Below are positions 1 to 52,172 of a stretch of DNA of 64,000 nucleotides, in pieces. The position numbers and the translations under genes are program-made. Within the stretch, counting starts at the first letter, position 1. Each line of letters begins with the position of its first letter. The stretch comes from Eledone cirrhosa (lineage: Eukaryota): positions 377,828,001 to 377,892,000 of the forward strand of contig OZ024743.1 in the NCBI GenBank assembly GCA_964016885.1, written 5' to 3'. A model generated the notes under the pieces. That model ran no database searches, was not told the origin of the DNA, and was given only the letters and a program-made list of their open reading frames with translations.

Positions 1-3000
1 TGTGTTAATGTTAACTCTAAACGGTGTTAATGTTAACTGTAAACTATGTTAATGTTAACTGTAAACGGTGACAATGTTAACTGTAAACTGTGTCAATGTT
101 AACTGTAAACTGTGTTAATGTTAACTGTAAACTGTGTTAATGTTAACTCTAAACTGTGTTAATGTTAACTCTAAACTGTGTTAATGTTAACTGTAAACTG
201 TGTCAATGTTAACTCTAAATTGTGTCAATGTTAACTGTTAACTGTGTCAATGTTAACTGTAAATTGTGTCAATGTTAACTTAAACTGTGTCAATGTTAAC
301 TGTAAACTGTGTTAATGTTAACTGTAAGCTGTGTCAATGTTAACTGTAAACTGTGTCAATGTTGACTGTAAACTGTGTTAATGTTAACTCTAAACTGTGT
401 TAATGTTAACTGTAAACTGTGTCAATGTTAACTGTAAACTGTGTCAATGTTAACTTAAACTGGGTCAATGTTAACTGTAAACTGTGTTAATGTTAACTCT
501 AAACGGTGTTAATGTTAACTGTAAACTATGTTAATGTTAACTGTAAACTGTGACAATGTTAACTGTAAAATGTGTCAATGTTAACTCTAAACTGTGTTAA
601 TGTTAACTGTAAACTGTGTTAATGTTAACTATAAACTGTGTTAATGTTAACTGTAAACTGTGTCAATGTTAACTGTAAACTGTGTTAATGTTAACTCTAA
701 ACTGTGTCAATGTTAACTGTAAACTGTGTTAATGTTAACTGTAAACTGTGTCAATGTTAACTGTAAACTGTGTTAATGTTAACTGTAAACTGTGTCAATG
801 TTAACTGTAAACTGTGTCGATGTTAACTGTGAACTGGGTCAATGTTAACTGTAAACTGTGTCAATATTAACTCTAAACTGTGTCAATGTTAACTGTTAAC
901 TGTGTCAATGTTAACTGTAAACTGTGTTAATGTTAACTGTAAACTGTGTCAATGTTAACTGTAAAGTGTGTCAATGTTAACTGTAAACTGTGTCGATGTT
1001 AACTGTAAATTGTGTCAATGTTAACTGTAAACTGTGTCAATGTTAACTGTAAACTATGTTGATGTTAACTGTAAACTGTGTCAATGTTAACTCTAAACTG
1101 TGTCAATGTTAACTGTAAACTGTGTTAATGTTAACTCTAAACTGTGTTAATGTTAACTGTAAACTGTGTTAATGTTAACTGTAAACTGTGACAATGTTAA
1201 CTGTAAACTGGGTCAATGTTAACTCTAAACTGTGTCAATGTTAACTGTAAACTGTGTTAATGTTAACTGCAAACTATGTCGATGTTAACTGTAAACTGTG
1301 TTGATGTTAACTGTAAACTGTGTCAATGTTAACTGTAAACTGTGTCAATGTTAACTATAAACTGTGTCAATGTTAACTGTAAACTGTGTTAATGTTAACT
1401 GTAAACTGTGTCAATGTTAACTGTAAACTGCGTCAATGTTAACTGTAAACTGTGTCAATGTTAACTGTAAACTGTGTCAATGTTAACTGTAAACTGTCAA
1501 TGTTAACTGTAAACTGTGTCAATGTTAACTCTAAACTGTCTCAATGTTAACTGTAAACTGTGTTAATGTTAACTGTAAACTGTGTCAATGTTAACTGTAA
1601 ACTGTGTTGTTAATGTTAACTGTAAACTGTGTCAATGTTAACTCTAAACTGTGTCAATGTTAACTGTAAACTGTGTTAATGTTAACTGTAAACTGTGTCA
1701 ATGTTAACTCTAAACTGTGTCAATGTTAACTGTAAACTGTGTTAATGTTAACTCTAAACTGTGTTAATGTTAACTGTAAACTGTGTCAATGTTAACTGTA
1801 AACTGTGTCAATGTTAACTGTAAACTGTGTCAATGTTAACTCTAAACTGTGTCAATGTTAACTGTAAACTGTGTTAATGTTAACTCTAAACTGTGTTAAT
1901 GTTAACTCTAAACTGTGTTAATGTTAACTCTAAACTGTGTTAATGTTAACTGTAAACTGTGTCAATGTTAACTCTAAATTGTGTCAATGTTAACTGTTAA
2001 CTGTGTCAATGTTAACTGTAAATTGTGTCAATGTTAACTTAAACTGTGTCAATGTTAACTGTAAACTGTGTTAATGTTAACTGTAAGCTGTGTCAATGTT
2101 AACTGTAAACTGTGTCAATGTTGACTGTAAACTGTGTTAATGTTAACTCTAAACTGTGTTAATGTTAACTGTAAACTGTGTCAATGTTAACTGTAAACTG
2201 TGTCAATGTTAACTTAAACTGGGTCAATGTTAACTGTAAACTGTGTTAATGTTAACTCTAAACGGTGTTAATGTTAACTGTAAACTATGTTAATGTTAAC
2301 TGTAAACTGTGACAATGTTAACTGTAAAATGTGTCAATGTTAACTCTAAACTGTGTTAATGTTAACTGTAAACTGTGTTAATGTTAACTATAAACTGTGT
2401 TAATGTTAACTGTAAACTGTGTCAATGTTAACTGTAAACTGTGTTAATGTTAACTCTAAACTGTGTCAATGTTAACTGTAAACTGTGTTAATGTTAACTG
2501 TAAACTGTGTCAATGTTAACTGTAAACTGTGTTAATGTTAACTGTAAACTGTGTCAATGTTAACTGTAAACTGTGTCGATGTTAACTGTGAACTGGGTCA
2601 ATGTTAACTGTAAACTGTGTCAATATTAACTCTAAACTGTGTCAATGTTAACTGTTAACTGTGTCAATGTTAACTGTAAACTGTGTTAATGTTAACTGTA
2701 AACTGTGTCAATGTTAACTGTAAAGTGTGTCAATGTTAACTGTAAACTGTGTCGATGTTAACTGTAAATTGTGTCAATGTTAACTGTAAACTGTGTCAAT
2801 GTTAACTGTAAACTATGTTGATGTTAACTGTAAACTGTGTCAATGTTAACTCTAAACTGTGTCAATGTTAACTGTAAACTGTGTTAATGTTAACTCTAAA
2901 CTGTGTTAATGTTAACTGTAAACTGTGTTAATGTTAACTGTAAACTGTGACAATGTTAACTGTAAACTGGGTCAATGTTAACTCTAAACTGTGTCAATGT

Positions 3001-6000
3001 TAACTGTAAACTGTGTTAATGTTAACTGCAAACTATGTCGATGTTAACTGTAAACTGTGTTGATGTTAACTGTAAACTGTGTCAATGTTAACTGTAAACT
3101 GTGTCAATGTTAACTATAAACTGTGTCAATGTTAACTGTAAACTGTGTTAATGTTAACTGTAAACTGTGTCAATGTTAACTGTAAACTGCGTCAATGTTA
3201 ACTGTAAACTGTGTCAATGTTAACTGTAAACTGTGTCAATGTTAACTGTAAACTGTCAATGTTAACTGTAAACTGTGTCAATGTTAACTCTAAACTGTCT
3301 CAATGTTAACTGTAAACTGTGTTAATGTTAACTGTAAACTGTGTCAATGTTAACTGTAAACTGTGTTGTTAATGTTAACTGTAAACTGTGTCAATGTTAA
3401 CTCTAAACTGTGTCAATGTTAACTGTAAACTGTGTTAATGTTAACTGTAAACTGTGTCAATGTTAACTCTAAACTGTGTCAATGTTAACTGTAAACTGTG
3501 TTAATGTTAACTCTAAACTGTGTTAATGTTAACTGTAAACTGTGTCAATGTTAACTGTAAACTGTGTCAATGTTAACTGTAAACTGTGTCAATGTTAACT
3601 CTAAACTGTGTCAATGTTAACTGTAAACTGTGTTAATGTTAACTCTAAACTGTGTTGATGTTAACTCTAAACTGTGTCAATGTTAACTGTAAATTGTGTT
3701 AATGTTAACTCTAAACTATGTTAATGTTAACTGTAAACTGTGTCAATGTTAACTGTAAACTGTGTCAATGTTAACTGTAAACTGTGTTAATGTTAACTCT
3801 AAACTGTGTTAATGTTAACTGTAAACTGTGTTAATGTTAACTGTAAACTGTGACAATGTTAACTGTAAACTGTGTCAATGTTAACTCTACACTGTGTCAA
3901 TGTTAACTGTAAACTGTGTTAATGTTAACTGCAAACTGTGTCAATGTTAACTCTAAACTGTGTTGATGTTAACTGTAAACTGTGTCAATGTTAACTGTAA
4001 ACTGTGTCAATGTTAACTATAAACTGTGTCAATGTTAACTGTAAACTGTGTCAATGTTAACTGTAAAATGTGTTAATGTTAACTGTAAACTGTGTCAATG
4101 TTAACTGTAAATTGTGTCAATGTTAACTGTAAACTGTGTTCATGTTAACTGTAAACTGTGTCAATGTTAACTGTAAACTGTGTTGATGTTAACTGTAAAC
4201 TATGTCAATGTTGACTATAAACTGTGTCAATGTTAACTGTAAACTGTGTCGATGTTAACTCTAAACTCGGTCAATTTTAACTGTAAACTGTGTTAATGTT
4301 AAATTAAACTGTGTTAATGTTAACTGTAAACTGCCTCAATGTTAACTCTAAACTGTGTTAATGTTAACTGTAAAATGTGTCAATGTTAACTCTAAACTGT
4401 GTCAATGTTAACTGTAAACTGTGTTGATGTTAACTGTAAACTGTGTCAATGTTAACTCTAAACTGAGTCAATGTTAACTGTAAACTGTGTTAATGTTAAC
4501 TTAAACTGTGTCAATGTTAAATGTAAACTGTGTCAATATTAACTGTAAACTGTGCTGATGTTAACTGTAAATTGTGTCAATGTTAAATGTAAACTGTGTC
4601 AATGTTAACTGTAAACTGTGTTAATGTTAACTGTAAACTGTGTCAATGTTAAATGTAAACTGTGTCAATGTTAACTGTAAACTGTGTTAATGTTAACTGT
4701 AAACTGTGTCAATGTTAACTGTAAACTGGGTCAATGTTAACTGTAAACTGTGTTAATGTTAACTCTAAACGGTGTTAATGTTAACTGTAAACTATGTTAA
4801 TGTTAACTGTAAACTGTGACAATGTTAACTGTAAACTGTGTCAATGTTAACTCTAAACTGTGTTAATGTTAACTGTAAACTGTGTTAATGTTAACTCTAA
4901 ACTGTGTTAATGTTAACTCTAAACTGTGTTAATGTTAACTGTAAACTGTGTCAATGTTAACTCTAAATTGTGTCAATGTTAACTGTTAACTGTGTCAATG
5001 TTAACTGTAAATTGTGTCAATGTTAACTTAAACTGTGTCAATGTTAACTGTAAACTGTGTTAATGTTAACTGTAAGCTGTGTCAATGTTAACTGTAAACT
5101 GTGTCAATGTTGACTGTAAACTGTGTTAATGTTAACTCTAAACTGTGTTAATGTTAACTGTAAACTGTGTCAATGTTAACTGTAAACTGTGTCAATGTTA
5201 ACTTAAACTGGGTCAATGTTAACTGTAAACTGTGTTAATGTTAACTCTAAACGGTGTTAATGTTAACTGTAAACTATGTTAATGTTAACTGTAAACTGTG
5301 ACAATGTTAACTGTAAAATGTGTCAATGTTAACTCTAAACTGTGTTAATGTTAACTGTAAACTGTGTTAATGTTAACTATAAACTGTGTTAATGTTAACT
5401 GTAAACTGTGTTAATGTTAACTGTAAACTGTGTCAATGTTAACTGTAAACTGTGTTAATGTTAACTGTAAACTGTGTCAATGTTAACTGTAAACTGTGTC
5501 GATGTTAACTGTGAACTGGGTCAATGTTAACTGTAAACTGTGTCAATGTTAACTCTAAACTGTGTCAATGTTAACTGTTAACTGTGTCAATGTTAACTGT
5601 AAACTGTGTTAATGTTAACTGTAAACTGTGTCAATGTTAACTGTAAAGTGTGTCAATGTTAACTGTAAACTGTGTCGATGTTAACTGTAAATTGTGTCAA
5701 TGTTAACTGTAAACTGTGTCAATGTTAACTGTAAACTATGTTGATGTTAACTGTAAACTGTGTCAATGTTAACTCTAAACTGTGTCAATGTTAACTGTAA
5801 ACTGTGTTAATGTTAACTCTAAACTGTGTTAATGTTAACTGTAAACTGTGTTAATATTAACTGTAAACTGTGACAATGTTAACTGTAAACTAGGTCAATG
5901 TTAACTCTAAACTGTGTCAATGTTAACTGTAAACTGTGTTAATGTTAACTGCAAACTATGTCGATGTTAACTGTAAACTGTGTTGATGTTAACTGTAAAC

Positions 6001-9000
6001 TGTGTCAATGTTAACTGTAAACTGTGTCAATGTTAACTATAAACTGTGTCAATGTTAACTGTAAACTGTGTTAATGTTAACTGTAAACTGTGTCAATGTT
6101 AACTGTAAACTGCGTCAATGTTAACTGTAAACTGTGTCAATGTTAACTGTAAACTGTGTCAATGTTAACTGTAAACTGTCAATGTTAACTGTAAACTGTG
6201 TCAATGTTAACTCTAAACTGTCTCAATGTTAACTGTAAACTGTGTTAATGTTAACTGTAAACTGTGTTAATGTTAACTGTAAACTGTGTCAATGTTAACT
6301 GTAAACTGTGTTAATGTTAACTGTAAACTGTGTCAATGTTAACTCTAAACTGTGTCAATGTTAACTGTAAACTGTGTTAATGTTAACTCTAAACTGTGTT
6401 AATGTTAACTGTAAACTGTGTCAATGTTAACTGTAAACTGTGTCAATGTTAACTGTAAACTGTGTCAATGTTAACTCTAAACTGTGTCAATGTTAACTGT
6501 AAACTGTGTTAATGTTAACTCTAAACTGTGTTGATGTTAACTCTAAACTGTGTCAATGTTAACTGTAAACTGTGTTAATGTTAACTGTAAACTGTGTCAA
6601 TGTTAACTCTAAACTGTGTCAATGTTAACTGTAAACTGTGTTAATGTTAACTCTAAACTGTGTTAATGTTAACTGTAAACTGTGTCAATGTTAACTGTAA
6701 ACTGTGTCAATGTTAACTGTAAACTGTGTCAATGTTAACTCTAAACTGTGTCAATGTTAACTGTAAACTGTGTTAATGTTAACTCTAAACTGTGTTGATG
6801 TTAACTCTAAACTGTGTCAATGTTAACTGTAAACTGTGTTAATGTTAACTCTAAACTGTGTTAATGTTAACTGTAAACTGTGTCAATGTTAACTGTAAAC
6901 TGTGTCAATGTTAACTGTAAACTGTGTTAATGTTAACTCTAAACTGTGTTAATGTTAACTGTAAACTGTGTTAATGTTAACTGTAAACTGTGACAATGTT
7001 AACTGTAAACTGTGTCAATGTTAACTCTACACTGTGTCAATGTTAACTGTAAACTGTGTTAATGTTAACTGCAAACTGTGTCAATGTTAACTGTAAACTG
7101 TGTTGATGTTAACTGTAAACTGTGTCAATGTTAACTGTAAACTGTGTCAATGTTAACTATAAACTGTGTCAATGTTAACTGTAAACTGTGTCAATGTTAA
7201 CTGTAAAATGTGTTAATGTTAACTGTAAACTGTGTCAATGTTAACTGTAAATTGTGTCAATGTTAACTGTAAACTGTGTTCATGTTAACTGTAAACTGTG
7301 TCAATGTTAACTGTAAACTGTGTTGATGTTAACTGTAAACTATGTCAATGTTGACTATAAACTGTGTCAATGTTAACTGTAAACTGTGTCTATGTTAACT
7401 CTAAACTCGGTCAATTTTAACTGTAAACTGTGTTAATGTTAAATTAAACTGTGTTAATGTTAACTGTAAACAGTCTCAATGTTAACTCTAAACTGTGTTA
7501 ATGTTAACTGTAAAATGTGTCAATGTTAACTCTAAACTGTGTCAATGTTAACTGTAAACTGTGTTGATGTTAACTGTAAACTGTGTCAATGTTAACTCTA
7601 AACTGAGTCAATGTTAACTGTAAACTGTGTTAATGTTAACTGTAAACTGTGTCAATGTTAAATGTAAACTGTGTCAATATTAACTGTAAACTGTGCTGAT
7701 GTTAACTGTAAATTGTGTCAATGTTAAATGTAAACTGTGTCAATGTTAACTGTAAACTGTGTTAATGTTAACTGTAAACTGTGTCAATGTTAAATGTAAA
7801 CTGTGTCAATGTTAACTGTAAACTGTGTTAATGTTAACTGTAAACTGTGTTAATGTTAACTCTAAACTGTGTCAATGTTAGCTCTAAACTGTGTCAATGT
7901 TAACTCTAAACTGTGTCAATGTTAACTCTAAACTGAGTTAATGTTAACTTTAAACTGTGTCAATGTTAACTGTAAACTGTGTTAATGTTAACTGTAAACT
8001 GTGTTCATGTTAACTGTAAACTGTGTTAATGTTAACTGTAAACTGTGTCAATGTTAACTGTAAACTGTCTCAATGTTAACTCTAAACTGTGTTAATGTTA
8101 ACTCTAAACTGTGTTAATGTTAACTGTAAACTGTGTCAATGTTAACTCTAAACTGTGTCAATGTTAACTTTAAACTGTGTTAATGTTAACTGTAAACTGT
8201 GTCAATGTTAACTGTAAACTGTGTCAATGTTAACTCTAAACTGTGTCAATGTTAACTCTAAACTGTGTCAATGTTAACTTTAAACTGTGTCAATGTTAAC
8301 TCTAAACTGTGTCAATGTTAACTGTAAACTGTGTCAATGTTAACTGTAAACTGTGTCAATGTTAACTGTAAACTGTGTCAATGTTAACTGTAAACTGTCT
8401 CAATGTTAACTCTAAACTGTGTTAATGTTAACTCTAAACTGTGTTAATGTTAACTGTAAACTGTGTCAATGTTAACTGTAAACTGTGTTAATGTTAACTG
8501 TAAACTGTGTCAATGTTAACTGTAAACTGTGTCAATGTTAACTCTAAACTGTGTCAATGTTAACTCTAAACTGTGTCAATGTTAACTTTAAACTGTGTCA
8601 ATGTTAACTCTAAACTGTGTCAATGTTAACTGTAAACTGTGTCAATGTTAACTGTAAACTGTGTCAATGTTAACTGTAAACTGTGTTAATGTTAACTCTA
8701 AACTGTGTTAATGTTAACTGTAAACTGTGTTAATATTAACTGTAAACTGTGACAATGTTAACTGTAAACTAGGTCAATGTTAACTCTAAACTGTGTCAAT
8801 GTTAACTGTAAACTGTGTTAATGTTAACTGCAAACTATGTCGATGTTAACTGTAAACTGTGTTGATGTTAACTGTAAACTGTGTCAATGTTAACTGTAAA
8901 CTGTGTCAATGTTAACTATAAACTGTGTCAATGTTAACTGTAAACTGTGTTAATGTTAACTGTAAACTGTGTCAATGTTAACTGTAAACTGCGTCAATGT

Positions 9001-11990
9001 TAACTGTAAACTGTGTCAATGTTAACTGTAAACTGTGTCAATGTTAACTGTAAACTGTCAATGTTAACTGTAAACTGTGTCAATGTTAACTCTAAACTGT
9101 CTCAATGTTAACTGTAAACTGTGTTAATGTTAACTGTAAACTGTGTTAATGTTAACTGTAAACTGTGTCAATGTTAACTGTAAACTGTGTTAATGTTAAC
9201 TGTAAACTGTGTCAATGTTAACTCTAAACTGTGTCAATGTTAACTGTAAACTGTGTTAATGTTAACTGTAAACTGTGTCAATGTTAACTCTAAACTGTGT
9301 CAATGTTAACTGTAAACTGTGTTAATGTTAACTCTAAACTGTGTTAATGTTAACTGTAAACTGTGTCAATGTTAACTGTAAACTGTGTCAATGTTAACTG
9401 TAAACTGTGTCAATGTTAACTCTAAACTGTGTCAATGTTAACTGTAAACTGTGTTAATGTTAACTCTAAACTGTGTTGATGTTAACTCTAAACTGTGTCA
9501 ATGTTAACTGTAAACTGTGTTAATGTTAACTCTAAACTGTGTTAATGTTAACTGTAAACTGTGTCAATGTTAACTGTAAACTGTGTCAATGTTAACTGTA
9601 AACTGTGTTAATGTTAACTCTAAACTGTGTTAATGTTAACTGTAAACTGTGTTAATGTTAACTGTAAACTGTGACAATGTTAACTGTAAACTGTGTCAAT
9701 GTTAACTCTACACTGTGTCAATGTTAACTGTAAACTGTGTTAATGTTAACTGCAAACTGTGTCAATGTTAACTGTAAACTGTGTTGATGTTAACTGTAAA
9801 CTGTGTCAATGTTAACTGTAAACTGTGTCAATGTTAACTATAAACTGTGTCAATGTTAACTGTAAACTGTGTCAATGTTAACTGTAAAATGTGTTAATGT
9901 TAACTGTAAACTGTGTCAATGTTAACTGTAAATTGTGTCAATGTTAACTGTAAACTGTGTTCATGTTAACTGTAAACTGTGTCAATGTTAACTGTAAACT
10001 GTGTTGATGTTAACTGTAAACTATGTCAATGTTGACTATAAACTGTGTCAATGTTAACTGTAAACTGTGTCTATGTTAACTCTAAACTCGGTCAATTTTA
10101 ACTGTAAACTGTGTTAATGTTAAATTAAACTGTGTTAATGTTAACTGTAAACTGTCTCAATGTTAACTCTAAACTGTGTTAATGTTAACTGTAAAATGTG
10201 TCAATGTTAACTCTAAACTGTGTCAATGTTAACTGTAAACTGTGTTGATGTTAACTGTAAACTGTGTCAATGTTAACTCTAAACTGAGTCAATGTTAACT
10301 GTAAACTGTGTTAATGTTAACTGTAAACTGTGTCAATGTTAAATGTAAACTGTGTCAATATTAACTGTAAACTGTGCTGATGTTAACTGTAAATTGTGTC
10401 AATGTTAAATGTAAACTGTGTCAATGTTAACTGTAAACTGTGTTAATGTTAACTGTAAACTGTGTCAATGTTAAATGTAAACTGTGTCAATGTTAACTGT
10501 AAACTGTGTTAATGTTAACTGTAAACTGTGTTAATGTTAACTCTAAACTGTGTCAATGTTAGCTCTAAACTGTGTCAATGTTAACTCTAAACTGTGTCAA
10601 TGTTAACTCTAAACTGAGTTAATGTTAACTTTAAACTGTGTCAATGTTAACTGTAAACTGTGTTAATGTTAACTGTAAACTGTGTTCATGTTAACTGTAA
10701 ACTGTGTTAATGTTAACTGTAAACTGTGTCAATGTTAACTGTAAACTGTCTCAATGTTAACTCTAAACTGTGTTAATGTTAACTCTAAACTGTGTTAATG
10801 TTAACTGTAAACTGTGTCAATGTTAACTCTAAACTGTGTCAATGTTAACTTTAAACTGTGTTAATGTTAACTGTAAACTGTGTCAATGTTAACTGTAAAC
10901 TGTGTCAATGTTAACTCTAAACTGTGTCAATGTTAACTCTAAACTGTGTCAATGTTAACTTTAAACTGTGTCAATGTTAACTCTAAACTGTGTCAATGTT
11001 AACTGTAAACTGTGTCAATGTTAACTGTAAACTGTGTCAATGTTAACTGTAAACTGTGTCAATGTTAACTGTAAACTGTCTCAATGTTAACTCTAAACTG
11101 TGTTAATGTTAACTCTAAACTGTGTTAATGTTAACTGTAAACTGTGTCAATGTTAACTGTAAACTGTGTTAATGTTAACTGTAAACTGTGTCAATGTTAA
11201 CTGTAAACTGTGTCAATGTTAACTCTAAACTGTGTCAATGTTAACTCTAAACTGTGTCAATGTTAACTTTAAACTGTGTCAATGTTAACTCTAAACTGTG
11301 TCAATGTTAACTGTAAACTGTGTCAATGTTAACTGTAAACTGTGTCAATGTTAACTGTAAATTGTGTTAATGTTAACTGTAAACTGTGTCAATGTTAACT
11401 GTAAACTGTGTCAATGTTAACTGTAAACTGTGTCAATGTTAACTGTAAATTGTGTCAATGTTAACTGTAAACTGTGTCAATGTTAACTGTTAACTGTGTC
11501 AATGTTAACTCTAAACTGTGTCAATGTTAACTCTAAACTGTGTCAATGTTAACTGTAAATTGTGTCAATGTTAACTCTAAACTGTGTTAATGTTAACTGT
11601 AAACTGTGTTAATGTTAACTGTAAACTGTGTCAATGTTAACTCTATACTGTGTCAATGTTAACTCTAAACTGTGTTAATGTTAACTGTAAACTGTGTCAA
11701 TGTTAACTCTATACTGTGTCAATGTTAACTCTAAACTGTGTTAATGTTAACTGTAAACTGTGTTAATGTTAACTTTAAACTGTGTCAATGTTAACTCTAA
11801 ACTGTGTTAATGTTAACTGTAAATTGTGTCAATGTTAACTCTAAACTGAGTTAATGTTAACTCTTAACTGTGTCAATGTTAACTGTAAACTGTGTCGATG
11901 TTCACTCTAAACTGTGTTAATGTTAACTGTAAACTGTGTTAACATTCATTGTATCAATGTTAACTGTAAATTGTGTTAATGTTCACAGTA
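1..11990. repeat. 22-bp tandem satellite (consensus AAACTGTGTYAATGTTAACTST), roughly 540 units, with kb-scale higher-order duplications; intronic to the PAP2 gene
   Basis: The 22-nt period is read directly. Each unit has a GTTAAC palindrome. Rare variant units recur at fixed offsets (1759 bp, 2681 bp). The array degenerates at ~11940-11995. Confidence 0.98.
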
Positions 11991-12030
11991 AACTGTTTTA
12001 AGATTTCAAATAATTTTCTTCATTATTTAG

Positions 12031-43683: not shown

Positions 43684-44189
43684 AACACACAAATGTGTCG
43701 TCTTATTTAAGTATTTCTCCACGTACAGAATATATCTATCTCTTTATTAAGACATTCATGAATGTATTCTAAGCTTTGGGCAAGGTTTCTCTTCTATTTC
43801 TAGCAAGTTGAATGACAACATAGACACTTCCTCGTGGTTACGTGATGATTACTTAGCTGGTTGCTTTACCATCGGTTGACTGCGATTGAAATTGTTTCTG
43901 TGTGTATTAAATTATGTTAGGAACTTTGAATGTGTGTCACCGGTACCATTTAGGAGAAGGTAAACATTATCAGTGACACCGGCTACTCGCTAGCTTTATA
44001 ACTTTAATTCATCTGATTATATCTTGTGTAGCAATTATCTAGTATTAAGGTGAATGTTGATGTTTTGTGGATAACACACGACGACGACTTAGGTAATAAC
44101 GAAGACAAGAAACTAAATAATTGTTTCTACTTTTGGCACCTAAATAATAGAATATCATCAGAGATATTTCTCATCTTCTAAGAAATACA

Positions 44190-45275
44190 ATGGATTACGT
44201 TAAACACTTTGACACTTCTAATACATCTGTTTTTACCAATATAGATACAGTTACACAGGCATACAGTGGTGAGGAACCTTTACCTAATGAAACATATACA
44301 GAACAAGGATCATTACACAGAAATATTTCTGAATATCGTTGTGAGATTTGTAGGGAAATTTTCTCAACGGAACATGAAGCCACTGCACACAAAGATGTAC
44401 ACAATAGGGAAAAGCCTTTCCATTGTGAAATATGTGGGAAATATTTTATCTATAATTCTCATTTAATAATGCATAATCGTAGTCACACTGGAGAAAAACC
44501 ATATCATTGTGAAATATGTGGGAAATCTTATGCCTATAATAGTGATCTAACAAAACACAAAAGAACACACACTGGAGAAAAGCCATATCGCTGTGAAATA
44601 TGTGGGAAATCATTCTCTCTTAAATCTAGTCTTGTTATTCATATACGTAGTCACACCGGAGAGAAAAAATATCTTTGTGAAATATGTGAGAAATCATTCA
44701 CTGATAATTCTTCTCTTGTAGTTCATAAAAGAATCCACACTGGAGAAAAACCGTATAGCTGTGAAGTATGTGGGAAATCCTTTATTAAAAATTCTCATCT
44801 TGTAGTCCACAAACGTTGCCACACTGGAGAAAAACCATATATTTGTGAAATATGTCGGAAATCATTTGGTGATAATTCAGCTTTTTTAGTTCACAAAAGA
44901 ATACACACTGGAGAAAAACCTTACCATTGTGAAATATGTGGGAAATCGTTTGTTTCTAACAATGATTTAAATAGACACATTATAATACACACAGGAGAAA
45001 AACCCTTCCACTGTGAAATATGTGGGAAATCTTTTACTCAGAATTCTAGTCTTGTAGTTCACAAACGTAGACATACTGGAGAAAAACCCTATCATTGTGA
45101 AAGTTGTGGGAAATCTTTCACTCGAAATATTCATCTTGTTATCCATATACGGAGTCACACTGGAGAAAAGCCTTACCATTGTGAAATATGTGAGAAATCT
45201 TTTGTTTCTAGCAGTGTCTTAAAAACACACAAACATATACATACTGGGGGAAAGTTTTTTAACTGTGAATCATAA
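44190..45275 (+). CDS. C2H2 zinc-finger protein, 361 aa, 11 tandem fingers, uninterrupted ORF
   Basis: Eleven C-x2-C-x12-H-x3-H units with TGEKPY linkers. A twelfth finger is cut by the stop codon. No KRAB, ZAD or BTB domain is seen. Confidence 0.93.
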   Translation: MDYVKHFDTSNTSVFTNIDTVTQAYSGEEPLPNETYTEQGSLHRNISEYRCEICREIFSTEHEATAHKDVHNREKPFHCEICGKYFIYNSHLIMHNRSHTGEKPYHCEICGKSYAYNSDLTKHKRTHTGEKPYRCEICGKSFSLKSSLVIHIRSHTGEKKYLCEICEKSFTDNSSLVVHKRIHTGEKPYSCEVCGKSFIKNSHLVVHKRCHTGEKPYICEICRKSFGDNSAFLVHKRIHTGEKPYHCEICGKSFVSNNDLNRHIIIHTGEKPFHCEICGKSFTQNSSLVVHKRRHTGEKPYHCESCGKSFTRNIHLVIHIRSHTGEKPYHCEICEKSFVSSSVLKTHKHIHTGGKFFNCES

Positions 45276-45630: not shown

Positions 45631-46727
45631 GAATTATAAGCTTGTAGTTGACTGGACAAACAAAATTATATCAATGTGCTATATGCTATATATGGGGAAC
45701 CATTCAGAGTAAAGTAAATCTACATTTGAATTCTACAAAGGATGATGATGATATAAGCATATATATGATTAAGATAAAAATACAGAAAAAAAAGGTTAAG
45801 ACTCATAATTATTCTTTTCTTACGGCCGAGCCCTAGGCCCAGAGCCTGTAACCCTCTCCTCTTCTCCCTCCTTTACTTCTGTGGCCCTAGAGTCCTTGCT
45901 TTTTTCCTCCCATTTATGGCATTTATAGACCTTTCCTCTATTTTCCTATACAGCCATACTGCCCTTTACCCCTTCCCCATTTTCTCATTACTTAATTTTG
46001 CTTTTATATTTATGTAATTATCAATGGTTTTTAAGCCAACTTTGTGAATATTTGTAATTTATCGAAATACTCTGTAATGATCAATTATTGAACTATCTAA
46101 AATCTTTCACCAAAAGAAAAGGAAATATTGAGTTTAGTTGGACAAATTTCCATAATTAAAAATAAAATACAAATCTGTTCTTGTTGGTAATCCTGATGTA
46201 GACTTGCCAACCTCAAAAAACCCAAACGGGGAGTACCATGAAAAAAAGTGCCCCAAAATGGAGAGAAAAAGAGGCATAATAGGGAGATTTTACATAATGA
46301 AAGTTATACCCATTTTCGCAAGAGAAGACATCTTTCACTCACTCCAAAGGCTATTGCAAATCTCCCTGTTGGATGGGGAGAGTTGACAGGTCTGCTGATG
46401 TGTATATATTTGATGACAACAATGATGTCTTTTTTACTAGAGTTGTCTAGTGAACACTGTCATTCTATCAGGTGTAGATGCAGTATGACCAATTGGTTAA
46501 GGAGTTTACTTCACAATCATAAGGTTCTTAGTTCAATCTCACTGCTTAGCATGTTGGGTAAGTGTTATTTATTATAGCCACATGTTAACCCAAATCTCGT
46601 GAGTGAAAAACTGTTGGGAAACTTGTTAGATGGATTGTACTAGAAACTCTAACGTTCCAGTTTTATCTCCCTGAGAATTATGTTCAGAGTGGCACATATC
46701 TTTGGAAGATTCAGTCACTTACACAAT

Positions 46728-46920
46728 AATTGTTTCTACTTTGGGCGCAAGGCCAGCAATTACCCCAGTGCATTACTGGTACTTTATTTTATCAACCCTT
46801 AAAGGATGAAAGGCAAAATTAACCTCGGTGGGATTTGAACTCAGACAGTAAAGGGCCGTAACTCTATGCTGCAAAGCATGACGTCCGATCCTCTACCGAT
46901 ACTGCCAATCCACTACCTTT
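46728..46920 (-). mobile_element. Nin-domain SINE inserted in a ~130-bp local tandem repeat
   Basis: ggatgaaaggcaaa...gggatttgaactc motif. Confidence 0.8.
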
Positions 46921-47515
46921 ACAGTCAGTTACACAATAATACAAGATAGATTGTACCAGAAACTCCAAAGATCCAGCTTAATCTCCCTGAGAATTACATT
47001 CTGGATGGCCCATAACTTTGGAAGATCCAGTCACTTACACATCATCACTGTTTTATGTCCATTTCCACGCTAACATGGGTTAGACACAATAGTACAGTAT
47101 GGATTGAACCAGAAACTCTAAAGTTCCAGCTTAATCGCCATAGAATTTCCTCCACCTCCCGACCGACCGACATTCCTCCCTTCGCCAAAAGAACGGTGCA
47201 TTATGCAGTATTAGTCTAAATTTAGAGGATATCATTACAATTTATGTCAAGTCAGCAACACGGGCTTTAAGGAATGCTTATTCAACACAACATGATTTCA
47301 CTTCAGACGCAGAAAAAATGAAACATGTTCAGATATGATGTGATATTAAAAAATAAATATAAATAAGATTTCCAAAGTGGACAAGTCACTACAATGCAGA
47401 GAACGCCAACAGAAAGAACAGTGTTACCCCAAGTCGATTACAAGAATAAGGATAATGAATTACGAAGATCTGAAAAAAAGAGATGGCGAAATGCTCTCGG
47501 AATTGACAGTAAGTC

Positions 47516-47701
47516 ATGCCTATACATTTACCATTTTATAACTATTGTGAACCTTTTACGACAGACTATTCTAAAGAGCCTATCAATAATTTAGACGAAT
47601 GCTCCAGACAAGATGACATAGATTACAACAACACTAACATATTAGAAGAAGCAGATAAAAAATTAATAGATTGCACAAATGACATCGACAGGGTAGCATA
47701 G
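47516..47701 (+). pseudogene. Parvoviral VP1-unique phospholipase A2 remnant
   Basis: IHLPFYNYCEPFT...PINNLDECSRQDDIDY...EADKKLI matches LPGYNYxGPG...PxNxLDxxAxxHDxxY...AD, with G>E and H>D substitutions. Confidence 0.8.
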
Positions 47702-47745
47702 TTAATAAAGCTATAAAGAGTAAAGCTGCAGTAACAAACATTCTA

Positions 47746-48090
47746 ATCATCATCACCGTTTTACGTCCGTTCTTCCACGCTAGCATGGGTTAGACGGGTT
47801 GTCCTGTTGTGTGCAGTGTCCGGTCGGCTGACCTTGTCTTGCTCATACAGGAACTGATTCTGGCTTGATTTCTACAGCTGGATGCCCTACCTAACACCAA
47901 CCTCATTTACAGTGAGTGCTGGGTGCTTTTTTTCCGTGGTGCCTACACATCCACTTTACAGTGTGGGCTGGGTGCTTTTTGCAGTGGAATGATAGGGACC
48001 CCAGTCCTATCATCTCATTTCTACAGCTGAGTAAAGTGGAGCAATGTGAAATAAAGTGTCTTGATCAAGGAAACAACACATCACCCGTGT
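47746..48090 (-). mobile_element. RTE-tailed SINE-like repeat inserted in the viral VP gene
   Basis: catcatcaccgttttacgtccgttcttccacgctagcatgggttagacg, as at 28500-28560 and 30972. Confidence 0.8.
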
Positions 48091-48476
48091 GTTTCCACCG
48101 ACAAACAAAAAAGGAGAATAGAAGGCATACAACAGAAGAAAAATCAAGACGAATTAACGTGCAACGTATCAGACAGAGACTTAATAGAAGCATTTCATGC
48201 ACAAGATAGCGGAGTAGGAGATTCACAACAAGATACAAACATGGGGGAATCACATGTAGGGCCATCACCAGGAGGCGGTGTAGCTATGGCAACAGGGGAC
48301 TCTCTACCATTGACTGGTGATATAAATCCTATAGTAAACAAAAAGTTTTTGCGAACTTGACAATACTACATAATACAGCATTCACTAGGCATACAAGCTC
48401 TGTGTTAACGAAATAATAAAAATCCTTTCTATCCATTTACAGAAAAACCACGTAACCAAGGTTTGGGATCTATTAA
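48090..48476 (+). pseudogene. Parvoviral capsid N-terminal remnant
   Basis: ...GPSPGGGVAMATGDSLPL...NKKFLRT*QYYI resembles the GGGVGxSTG...RTW start of parvoviral capsids (TGA is probably a former TGG). Confidence 0.55.
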
Positions 48477-48481
48477 CAAAA

Positions 48482-48961
48482 AAAAAAAACTTATTAGTTT
48501 TTAGAGGATTACCAAACATTGGAAAGAGTGTGATAGCTAAATTATTTTCACATCAGTCTACAATTCAAGGAACATCTTTTCCATTCCAAAACTTAACAAA
48601 CGTCGAAATAGGTTTAATAGAAGAACCATCTTTTACACTAGAGACACTGCAAACTTTTAAAAAATTAATGGAAGGTGTTGACACAGAGGTCATGGTCAAA
48701 TTTAAAGTGGATCAAATTGTGAAACCAGTAATACTAAATTTGATCAAAATGCTTCACTTGCAGAAAGATTGGCTTTCGTAACTAGGTACACAGAATTTCT
48801 ACATGTTAGAAAAAAATTAAATCCAGGTATCTGGAATATTCTATTTTATGAACATTGATTCAATGAACTCGCCGATGATGGGCATGATTTGTCTGAAGAA
48901 CATTTAAATTTCGTTCTAGATGAATACAAATGAAAAGTTGCTGAGCTCAAAGAAAGAAAAA
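48482..48961 (+). pseudogene. Parvoviral NS1 SF3 helicase remnant
   Basis: KKNLLVFRGLPNIGKS (Walker A), FPFQNL, IGLIEEP (Walker B), FKKLMEG...VKFK (B'). After a frameshift: AERLAFVTR and KKLNPGIW. Confidence 0.88.
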
Positions 48962-50305
48962 GAAGATTCAGTCATTTACACTATAATACAAGATGAATTA
49001 TACCTGTCAATCAAAGATCCGTCCTTGTCATATACTGACAAATTGAATCTCTGAGAATTATTTCAAGGGTACGCGTGTCTGTAGAATACTCAGCCTCTTG
49101 CACTGTAACACAATATGTACTGTACCTGTATTTTAAAGGGCCAGCCTTGTTACATTGGTCCTTCCTGTGAGTTACGTAAAGGGTACACATGCCTATGGAA
49201 TACTCTGCCTCATGCACTATAACACAATGTGGAATGTTTCTGTAATTCAGATGTTCAGCCATGTCACATACTGTGTTTTTCTGAATCTTCCTGAGGATTA
49301 TGTTAAAGGTACACTGTCTGTGAAATGCTCAGCCCTTTGCACATGAATTTAACTGAAATACTGATTGTCAAAATCTTTGGTGGTTCATTTATATTTTTTT
49401 TATTCAATCAGTTGTTTTATACAGTGGTGTATTTATAAATGACCACCACTGCTGAATCTAATTATTGAAACATCTAAAGGGAACCATTAACAGTTCTACT
49501 GACTCCAATCCATGTTTGCCTTTTTTTTTTCTTGGAATTAAAATTTTGCTCATATCTGATCCTTGTCTTCTTAAATTCATTTTTAATATATGTAAGAAAT
49601 TTTAGTGTTTCTTGGTTGTTACTCCATATTTCAAATTGAAACAAGGAAAATTAATGTTAAATGATGATGATGATACTTAATTGTAACCCTAAACTTTAAG
49701 CCCTAAGCCTTATCCTGCATTTCAAATTGAAATGTTACCTAAACATAATTCATTATCATGATTTACCAATATATTACATGAGCTTAGCTGATCTCACTTG
49801 GGGATCCAGCCAGATCAGTTGGAGACTGTTGCTTTTGACAGGACCTGCTGGAAGGAGTGTTTGAGCCTCTCAGGTATAAGTGGGCGAAGGAGATGTAAAT
49901 AAAAGAGTTACATTTGGAATTTGTCAAATTGCTGATTCAAATTTTTGTTATTTTCCCATCTAAATATTTTTTATTAACATCATAATATCATCTAAATCTT
50001 ACAAAAAAACACCCAGTCCACCCTGTAATGTGGTAGTGCTGGTGTCACGATGAAAAAAAACAATCCACCTTGTAATGAGGTGGTGCTAGTGCCACGATAA
50101 AATGTTTCTGGTACTTGAGGTGGATGGTGTTTGGAAGAACGTCCAGTTGTAGAAACCAAGTAAGAAATGGAATGTTTGAGCAAGATGTGGTTGACTGCCT
50201 AAAATTTTACAGAACTTTCTAGATCAACATTCCTTAACCCTTTAGTTACCAACCTGACCAAAACTATCTCTGGTTCTATGAAATAAAATCATCCATTTTA
50301 AAGGT

Positions 50306-52172
50306 ATCATCATCATCATCATCATCATCGTTTAACGTCCATGTTCCACGCTTGCATGGGTTTGGACGGGAGTTTTCCCACTTGAGGCAAGAGTGGTTGT
50401 CTTGCTCGCATAGGACTGTCTGGCAGGTTTTCTACAGCTAGATGCCCTTCCTAACACCAACCATATTTACAGTGTGGGACTGGGAGGTTTTTACCGTGTT
50501 GCCTACACGGCCACATTACAGCGTGGACTGTGTGTTTTTTTGTCGTGACACCTACACGATCTCATTTGTTTCGGCCTGGATGTTGTGGCACCAACGTAAC
50601 TTTACATTGAAAGGGGCGGTGTGGATGGGGTGGGGGTGGTGTGACGGGGGCGTATTTTGTTAGAGATGCCTACTGACTGTAGTAGGTTTACTTTGTATTT
50701 AGGCTAGGCGGGTCTTCTCTATTACTGAGTACCGCCAAAGATCTCGGTCCAGTGACATTGTCTTGTAGAGGTGTAAGTGTGTGAGGTCGGAATTTATCAG
50801 GTCTCCCAGGTTTTTCTGGGTCTGCCTACTCCGTGGCTACCGTCTATCTTTATTGCCCTGCACTTTTTTATACAGCTGTCGTCTTTCATACGCATCATGT
50901 GACCATACCAACGTAGCCTTCTCTCGAGTAAACAACATCTGATCCCTCTTATTTCTAATTTTTCCCTTAGTTCGTTTATGCTTTGCCATTCACGTATATT
51001 ACTATTACACATCCAGCGGAGCATGCAAGCTTCGTTCCTCTCTAGTCTGCGTATATCCTCTGCACACAATCCCCAGGTCTCACTGCCATGCAACATTGCT
51101 GTTCGTATGCAGGCATCATACAACCTGCCTTTCATTTTTAGGGAGAACCCTTTAGCGGCTAATAGTGGTATAAGCTCTCTGAACTTTTTCCATCCAGTTC
51201 TGACTCTAGCTACTGTACTTTCAGAGCACCCTCCCCCACTGCTGATTTTGTCACCCAGGTAACGGAAGCTGTCCACTATTTCTATAGAACCCTCTGCGCA
51301 ATTGAAAAAGCTAGTATTTTGTGGGCACTTGCTGCTACTTATTACACCAGAGCACCGGCCACATGTAAAATCTATGTTCGTAGTTAGCTTACCTGTGATC
51401 CCACTACATCTTTTATGCACCCATACTTTGCATTTGGGACATAAAATGGAGTTTCTACCTACGCCTTTCCTACACACTGAGCATGGCCATTTCCCGGAAG
51501 GGACCGGCGCCTTATTTTCTTTCCTACAAACTAGAACTTTAGTCTTAGCCAGGTTAATTTTAAGGCCTTTTGATTCTAGGCCGTGCTTCCATGTTTGGAA
51601 TTTCTTCTCTAGCTTGGCCATTGATTCAGCTATGAGCGTTAGATCATCTGCGTATAGGAGTTCCCATGGGCAGCCGGTCTTAAACTCCACTGTTATAGCC
51701 TGAAGGGCAATAATAAATAGTAGGGGGCTAAGAACAGAGCCCTGATGAACACCAACTTTTACGCTAAACTCTTCACTATATTCGTTGTTAATTCTAACCT
51801 TGCTGACTGTTTCTTTATACATGGCTTGTATAGCTCTCACAAGCCATTCGTCAACACCTGGTTTTCTAAGAGCCCACCAGATAATGGAACGGGAGACTTT
51901 GTCGAAGGCTTTCTCCAAGTCAACAAAAGCTAAGTTTAGGGGTTTACTTTTAGCTAGGTACTTCTCCTGTAGTTGTCGTACAATGAAAAGAGCGTCTGTG
52001 GTACTTTTGCCTGACACAAACCCGAACTGCATTTCATCTAGATCAATTCTCTCTCTGATTAGTTGCGCTATTACTTTTTACGTGACCTTCATGACCTGGT
52101 CGATTAATTTAATGCCTCTATAGTTACTCCTATCTAGGGCATCTCCTTTACCCTTGTAACAGTTAATGATGA
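50306..52172 (-). mobile_element. RTE-clade LINE, 5'-truncated, RT with PHD insertion, nested in a TTAA MITE
   Basis: 411-aa ORF 50797-52032 (QFGF, GVHQGSVLSP, LLYADD). (GAT)n tail. MITE halves at 50234-50305 and 52170-52422. Confidence 0.95.

Follow-up and report, generated by a model that had tools for sequence, protein, structure and literature searches.

The locus at positions 47141-48963 (+) of the 64,000-nt stretch of Eledone cirrhosa DNA analyzed here (the window) raises the question of whether a parvovirus is hidden among its short reading frames and, if so, what kind of virus left it there. A sequence-only reading had proposed three parvoviral signatures on this strand, a phospholipase A2 (PLA2) domain, a capsid start and an SF3 helicase, and all three were recovered at that place. 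The PLA2 frame (47513-47698) matched Pfam PF08398 with an E-value of 2.1e-6 (28.3 bits; cut-off 23.9), and the five matches found by the PDB search were all parvoviral capsid proteins (best E 2.8e-4). The helicase frame (48389-48778) matched Parvo_NS1 (PF01057) with an E-value of 1.7e-5 (24.4 bits; cut-off 20), so that the proposed profile check placed both frames above the Pfam cut-offs; PPV_E1_C was a weak second Pfam match of the helicase, and a PDB sequence search with the window helicase alone gave no significant match. The remaining seven of the nine window frames scanned showed no Pfam family, including the frame read as a Gly-rich capsid start. That piece (48106-48372) is capsid, as it aligned to residues 82-163 of an open-frame sister capsid (53%, E 2e-22), but its GGG is not a poly-Gly tract.

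The start of the element, previously placed at 47148, was found at about 47141, inside a terminal hairpin. The remnant of this capsid-end hairpin (47141-47208, +) comprises the loop end and, from 47149, an inner arm with CCTCCC repeats, and it is 87% identical to that of copy L069 and 84% to that of L087. The distance from the arm to the leader ATG is 306 nt, compared with 256-316 nt in 13 sister rows, whereas the remnant no longer folds (-5.1 kcal/mol vs. -66 to -78 kcal/mol in three sister copies). Downstream, all on the plus strand, lie a TATAAA predicted to be the single left promoter (47358-47363), whose position matches the sister copies, an 18-codon leader ORF beginning MNYEDLK (47455-47508), predicted to be the first exon of NS1, and a predicted 5' splice donor in phase 0, GTAAGT (47509-47514), directly before the capsid ATG at 47516. 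Capsid residues 1-73 (47516-47731, +) carry the PLA2 domain, in which both PLA2 motifs are degenerate and a stop occurs at 47699. The capsid gene is interrupted by a high-copy SINE-like repeat (47746-48087, no strand assigned) with a read depth far above single-copy; it is apparently made of two parts (47746-47987 and from there up to 48087) and is 94% identical to its nearest copies. Capsid residues 82-163 (48106-48372, +) follow, reaching the first jelly-roll strand and containing a stop at 48358. At the deletion junction (48373-48451, +), the alignment passes from capsid residue 163 to NS1 residue 297, and the missing part of about 2 kb held the body of the jelly roll, the HUH nuclease domain and, between them, the capsid-NS spacer in which the splice acceptor lies. 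The SF3 helicase and C-terminal part of NS1 (residues 297-489; 48452-48963, +) remain with 68% and 43% identity (joint E 8e-49) and with Walker A at 48506-48529, but contain small deletions, a frameshift near 48724-48736, and stops at 48856 and 48931. Because its own capsid-NS junction is deleted, the native gene order of the window copy was taken from its sisters.

The element is embedded in host DNA. A host repeat unit of about 95 bp is split by the insertion; its left part (47099-47147, +) is 86% identical to the unit at 46946-47040, a further intact unit lies at 46630-46724, and the unit resumes at 48962-48985 (+) with about 25 nt missing. The bases AGAATT (47142-47147) fit the host unit and the viral hairpin alike, giving a microhomology of 6 nt at the left junction, and no target-site duplication was seen at the two junctions with the split repeat. 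Microhomology, the loss of about 25 nt and the lack of a target-site duplication would fit end-joining. Contigs of run X1 (46892-47773 and 48058-49674) crossed both host-virus junctions with zero differences, although X1 may be the assembly's own sample, and a contig of run X4 (48471-49384), another sample of the same study, crossed the right junction; the RAD-seq runs X5 and X7 gave almost no depth on the unique parts of the element. The junction contigs and the split repeat bear out the proposal of an integrated and degraded parvovirus, and the stops, deletion and repeat insertion that had been postulated were located as described above. The element is thus almost certainly a real endogenous parvovirus. 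Judging from its sequence, the window copy is old relative to its sisters, with the longest end branch of its clade (0.36 vs. 0.05-0.29), and it likely has no protein function now. By itself it is an ordinary decayed fossil, and its interest lies in the family that it exposed. Elsewhere in the window, a C2H2 zinc-finger ORF of 374 aa with 9.3 repeats of 84 nt (44151-45275, +) shares the strand of the element and ends 1.9 kb before it, a LINE reverse-transcriptase frame of 426 aa, which we take to be of the RTE type, occupies 50797-52077 (-), and a 22-bp satellite with 546 copies and 91% matches extends over 1-11996.

The description of the locus as a fossil holds for the window copy, but it is not a lone one; it belongs to a large family with young copies. 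The genome search yielded 68 NS1, 25 PLA2 and 78 capsid matches for lineage A, counts that are lower bounds and not copy numbers, and 24 capsid and 87 NS matches for a second, distant lineage (B), in which many of the 87 NS matches are a host repeat at the query start. The NS1 of lineage B (L069, L076, L080, L088, L089, L092, L093) is 25-30% identical to that of lineage A; the lineage has its own PLA2 capsid and is also capsid-first, without a leader donor. By eye, it resembles the Sepia and Euprymna fragments in the available part of PMC5013282. In addition, five annotated O. vulgaris capsid-like proteins (P0012 cluster, CAI9722210.1-CAI9722215.1), whose accessions are nearly consecutive and which each lie on a 177-Mb contig, match the lineage A capsid at 37%, and a 991-aa frame in L081 (4044-7016) starts like a retrotransposon protease/pol and continues in frame into NS1 residues.

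The nine longer database relatives of the helicase frame were all Parvo_NS1 proteins with 54-70% identity, the closest named ones being proteins of Octopus vulgaris and O. bimaculoides (69-70%). Helicase trees were built from 158 and 91 rows, without classified references, the first leaving out 12 of 170 rows below the domain cut-off. The window helicase fell into a 17-row clade with the Octopus proteins (SH-aLRT 99). Lineage A, lineage B and the three metagenomic contigs described below fell apart on weakly supported branches. Only one of the top 20 relatives looked up was named, as an unclassified 'parvoviridae sp.'. The available text of PMC5013282 (Francois et al. 2016) lists an O. bimaculoides protein, A0A0L8GWZ8, as endogenous, together with an O. 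vulgaris VP transcript and NS fragments of Sepia and Euprymna. A0A0L8GWZ8 (P0003) is 69% identical to the window helicase and belongs to the same clade. The cephalopod entries are fragments of 246 aa or <800 nt, for which that text describes neither gene order nor termini, splicing or copy number. The earlier remark that cephalopod parvoviruses are poorly described needs amending, as these fragments were already present in its supplement. No cephalopod parvovirus genome, termini of this lineage or capsid-spanning NS1 splice was found in the mostly open-access paper text covered.

The nature of the upstream gene was assessed on sister copies. A 522-aa sister protein matched the capsid of Penaeus monodon metallodensovirus (PmMDV) outside the PLA2 domain (E 5e-8). 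The structure predicted for the C-terminal 392 residues of the sister capsid from 16 sequences was of medium confidence (pLDDT 59, pTM 0.66) and replaced an earlier model from 8 sequences (pLDDT 41, best Foldseek E 3e-3). Foldseek matched the new model to parvoviral capsids with an E-value of 8e-10, and the top 20 rows of VIA-align were all parvoviral capsids (best Z 17.5, rmsd 4.0, 252 aligned residues), while the next non-parvoviral fold had a Z of 6.5. The Atlas comparison gave 0.95 to the Denso_VP4/VP1_2 clusters (recognition 1957), a value that is weak alone. On the basis of this modeled fold, the upstream PLA2-bearing ORF is assigned as a parvoviral single jelly-roll capsid protein. A separate upstream PLA2 protein in the style of SwaBA-MePV-1 was rejected on the same predicted fold. 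As for NS1, PF01057 scored above its cut-off in the window and in sister copies, the NS1 profile matched AAV Rep (E 7e-12), and at the motif level HUH was seen as HFH at residue 83 in two sister copies and as HxH in three virus-sized metagenomic contigs (L108-L110).

Gene order was determined on 40 stretches of 10 kb taken from the genome, on each of which capsid and NS1 were mapped. The count kept 38 of the 68 NS1 and 42 of the 78 capsid rows, 20 of the 24 lineage B capsid rows, and 29 merged pieces of the 87 lineage B NS matches; rows that duplicated a locus, belonged to the other lineage or covered only a repeat were dropped, and the window's capsid row was trimmed to its tblastn limit. Where an NS piece had a capsid piece on its strand no more than 1.5 kb away, the capsid came first in 23 of 25 cases in lineage A and in 9 of 10 in lineage B; not all of these pieces are independent insertions. 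The three exceptions with NS before capsid all lay between fragments in crowded clusters. At the undeleted junctions, the capsid stop and the NS1 start were separated by about 50-60 nt, and both genes were always on one strand, unlike the opposite strands of the ambisense Densovirinae genera. The sequence-only reading was therefore right in calling the virus monosense, but it missed that the canonical order is reversed, with the capsid before NS1.

Hairpins were found around the coding region in the sisters, whereas the window keeps only the arm remnant. Upstream of the capsid gene, L072, L082 and L085 have left hairpins with arms of 43-123 bp and loops of 63-64 nt, and L084 has a weaker one. 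An arm sharing TGCAC and CCGGGAGGGAGG occurs 3' of the NS1 stop and polyA signal in L074, L081 and partly in L082, but it was missing in the four other copies checked. The left hairpin loop is present in both orientations (flip/flop), one in L069, L070, L076, L087 and L101 and the other in L072, L074, L082 and L085, and five copies break at nearly one place in the loop. Parvoviral rolling-hairpin replication yields both loop orientations. Since hairpins flank the gene pair and only 50-60 nt lie between the genes, the capsid-first order is very probably native to the virus. This layout departs from the canonical NS-left/VP-right arrangement; it represents a variant and not an exclusion from Parvoviridae, because family placement rests on the SF3 domain according to the available text of PMC13426907.

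The same order was found outside the octopus genome. A first metagenome scan confirmed none of 261 pattern matches, and the IMG/VR scans gave nothing except one weak match (E 6e-5) in a 150-kb contig. A JGI metagenome scan with an alignment of unnamed NS1 relatives confirmed 3 of 153 pattern matches, L108, L109 and L110 (4071, 4693 and 3471 nt). All three are virus-sized and capsid-then-NS1, with NS1 in the 3' half, and their upstream ORFs matched the octopus capsid profile with E-values of 2e-17, 2e-11 and 5e-86, respectively. L109 has hairpins at both ends and L108 has one at the NS end. The capsids of these contigs (L108:413-1900, L109:483-2486, L110:68-1405) have no PLA2 match, whereas both octopus lineages have one; each contig also contains a frame of 187-294 aa overlapping NS1.

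For NS1, a splice across the capsid gene was predicted. In 5 of 6 sister copies examined, TATAAA lies 149-159 nt upstream of the capsid start. The leader of 18 codons is present in 19 distinct copies, with a GT donor at offset 54 in 17 of them (16 GTAAGT and 1 GTGAGT; two decayed copies differ), and the capsid ATG lies 7 or 10 nt further on, in a frame other than that of the leader. After the capsid stop, a pyrimidine tract and YAG acceptor are in phase with NS1 in 11 of 12 loci. The acceptor is exactly 15 nt before the NS1-aligned start in 10 of the 12, and in 5 of those 10 the first Met is replaced by Leu. The spacing from capsid stop to acceptor drifts (34, 38 or 39 nt), whereas the codons downstream of the acceptor are conserved. 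In L109 the HUH motif is at residue 72 and the first Met at 176, and in L110 they are at 80 and 109; donor and acceptor are both in phase 2 in these two contigs, so their NS1 appears to need the splice, because HUH precedes any Met and the phases match. The L110 leader is cut by the contig start, and the leaders of L109 and L110 share a GDEAL motif.

Alternatively, the capsid-first order may be native while NS1 is expressed from a second promoter inside the capsid gene, the donor and acceptor being used for a minor product or not at all. In many copies of lineage A, an ATG is found no more than a few codons from the acceptor. L108 has an ATG of its own for NS1, and its first acceptor does not match the phase of its leader; in lineage B a TATA-like box was found near the capsid end in two copies examined and no leader donor in five. 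The splice is thus not universal, since lineage B is without the donor. However, the leader length and amino-acid pattern are kept across copies about 70% identical, codon conservation starts exactly at the acceptor, and no Met precedes the HUH motif in L109 and L110. A second promoter is therefore unlikely to account for NS1 in lineage A, where production of NS1 by splicing over the capsid gene is predicted as the probable route.

The parvoviral pieces of the two distant lineages form about 64 clusters when grouped at 60 kb, and eight of them hold both lineages, compared with about 0.05 expected by a rough chance estimate. These are at C2:345.37, C11:15.43, C12:8.98 and 9.07, C18:15.04, C23:3.30 and C25:7.44 Mb and on C841 of G000, and they suggest integration hot spots, which may be piRNA clusters. 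Such sharing, as for capture hot spots, would agree with retention of the window copy by the host as an antiviral piRNA template or other co-opted element. The window copy, however, is alone, with no other parvoviral piece in the 64 kb, and has the longest branch of its clade, so that its retention is improbable; this reading is compatible with the decayed integrated parvovirus that we prefer.

Five capsid frames at four places (C5:102.83 Mb, C10:49.49 Mb, C14:8.50 Mb and C998 of G000; L070-L075, L082, L083) differ by only 0-4 of 1566 nt, which suggests either that one strain integrated very recently or that the assembly captured viral DNA in replication. These young copies sit in inverted, concatemer-like arrays. 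Arrays of this kind would be expected if an ordinary NS-then-capsid virus had been inserted as head-to-tail concatemers or opened circles, in which a capsid gene stands before the NS1 of the next genome, and some large parvoviruses may be circular according to the available part of 10.1101/2024.03.25.586562. Against this, the short spacer at undeleted junctions contains no hairpin, the hairpins being upstream of the capsid and downstream of NS1 instead; none of the 40 stretches has a copy in which a whole NS1 end is closely followed by a capsid start; and the three free contigs are capsid-first with no terminal direct repeat of at least 15 nt. An artefact of concatemers or circles is thus largely refuted and has only a slim chance of being correct. 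The sister copies refute the reading that an SF3 helicase from outside the parvoviruses lies by chance beside a PLA2 of the host or of a transposon, for which the window helicase alone offers its empty PDB search and weak PPV_E1_C match. In these copies PLA2 is fused to a parvoviral jelly roll, HUH and SF3 occur together, terminal hairpins are present, and the capsids match parvoviral capsids. The sequence-only reading had named the opposite result, with no parvoviral capsid similarity, as grounds for dropping the parvovirus.

In summary, the locus is best explained, with a probability of roughly 80%, as a decayed, non-coding, integrated linear parvovirus with a most likely native capsid-first order and NS1 predicted to be expressed via a leader splice across the capsid gene. 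The virus would replicate by rolling hairpin, as the two loop orientations among copies suggest, and one left promoter would give one pre-mRNA. Capsid would be translated from the unspliced RNA, with ribosomes scanning leakily past the leader ATG, and NS1 from the spliced RNA, in which the leader is joined across the capsid gene. The window copy would have been integrated into the germ line through end-joining at the hairpin, using a short microhomology and losing about 25 host bases, and the repeat insertion, deletion, stops and frameshift would have followed integration.

This virus resembles canonical monosense Parvoviridae (Parvovirinae, Hamavirinae) in having some 4 kb between its hairpins, genes that share one strand, an NS1 with HUH and SF3, and a jelly-roll capsid with an N-terminal PLA2. 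It differs in its reversed gene order and in that its capsid gene would act as an NS1 intron; the review PMC11357303 states for all parvoviruses that NS is the left and VP the right gene. The capsid-first order has a precedent, because the available part of PMC9001828 (Shan et al. 2022) notes a structural ORF upstream of the non-structural ORF in two genomes from bar-headed goose cloaca, MT138329 and MT138334. As described there, these are >7 kb with an extra ORF, an unknown host and no mechanism, and their likeness to the octopus lineage is one of gene order by description. In the SwaBA megaparvovirus 1 group, for which EVEs were used for host assignment, a PLA2-bearing ORF also lies upstream of NS1, but, according to the available text of PMC13426907, it encodes a separate protein and the capsid gene follows NS1, whereas the upstream ORF of the octopus virus is the predicted capsid. 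The nearest solved capsids by sequence are those of PmMDV (Metallovirinae) and Hamavirinae/Penbrevirinae (PDB 6wh3, 9nek, 3n7x; E 5e-8 and 1.7e-3), which were also among the top Foldseek rows. The gene order of PmMDV is NS first. Both octopus lineages have PLA2 at the capsid N-terminus, unlike PmMDV, HPV and IHHNV, which are without PLA2 in the available text of PMC11357303; the octopus capsids thus carry a domain that is missing from the solved capsids closest to them in sequence. PLA2 is limited to two subfamilies and one transfer case in the available text of PMC13426907.

Taken further, these results slightly favor an unnamed, subfamily-sized parvovirus group with a backward genome, in which the capsid would be expressed first from the terminal promoter and NS1 by splicing out the capsid gene, inverting the early-NS/late-capsid logic. 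Cephalopods would be its first assignable hosts, with two distant lineages, dozens of octopus germ-line invasions into shared hot spots, and one strain integrating now. The NS-left/VP-right arrangement is stated in reviews as a family rule tied to early NS1 expression, and a widespread lineage of opposite order, together with a specific predicted splice by which such a genome could function, is a directly testable exception to it. Host-less metagenomic parvoviruses are thereby tied to a probable animal host group. The near-identical young copies imply very recent circulation of a virus in octopus, a point of relevance to the health and farming of these animals, and the many copies of graded age constitute a fossil record usable for dating.
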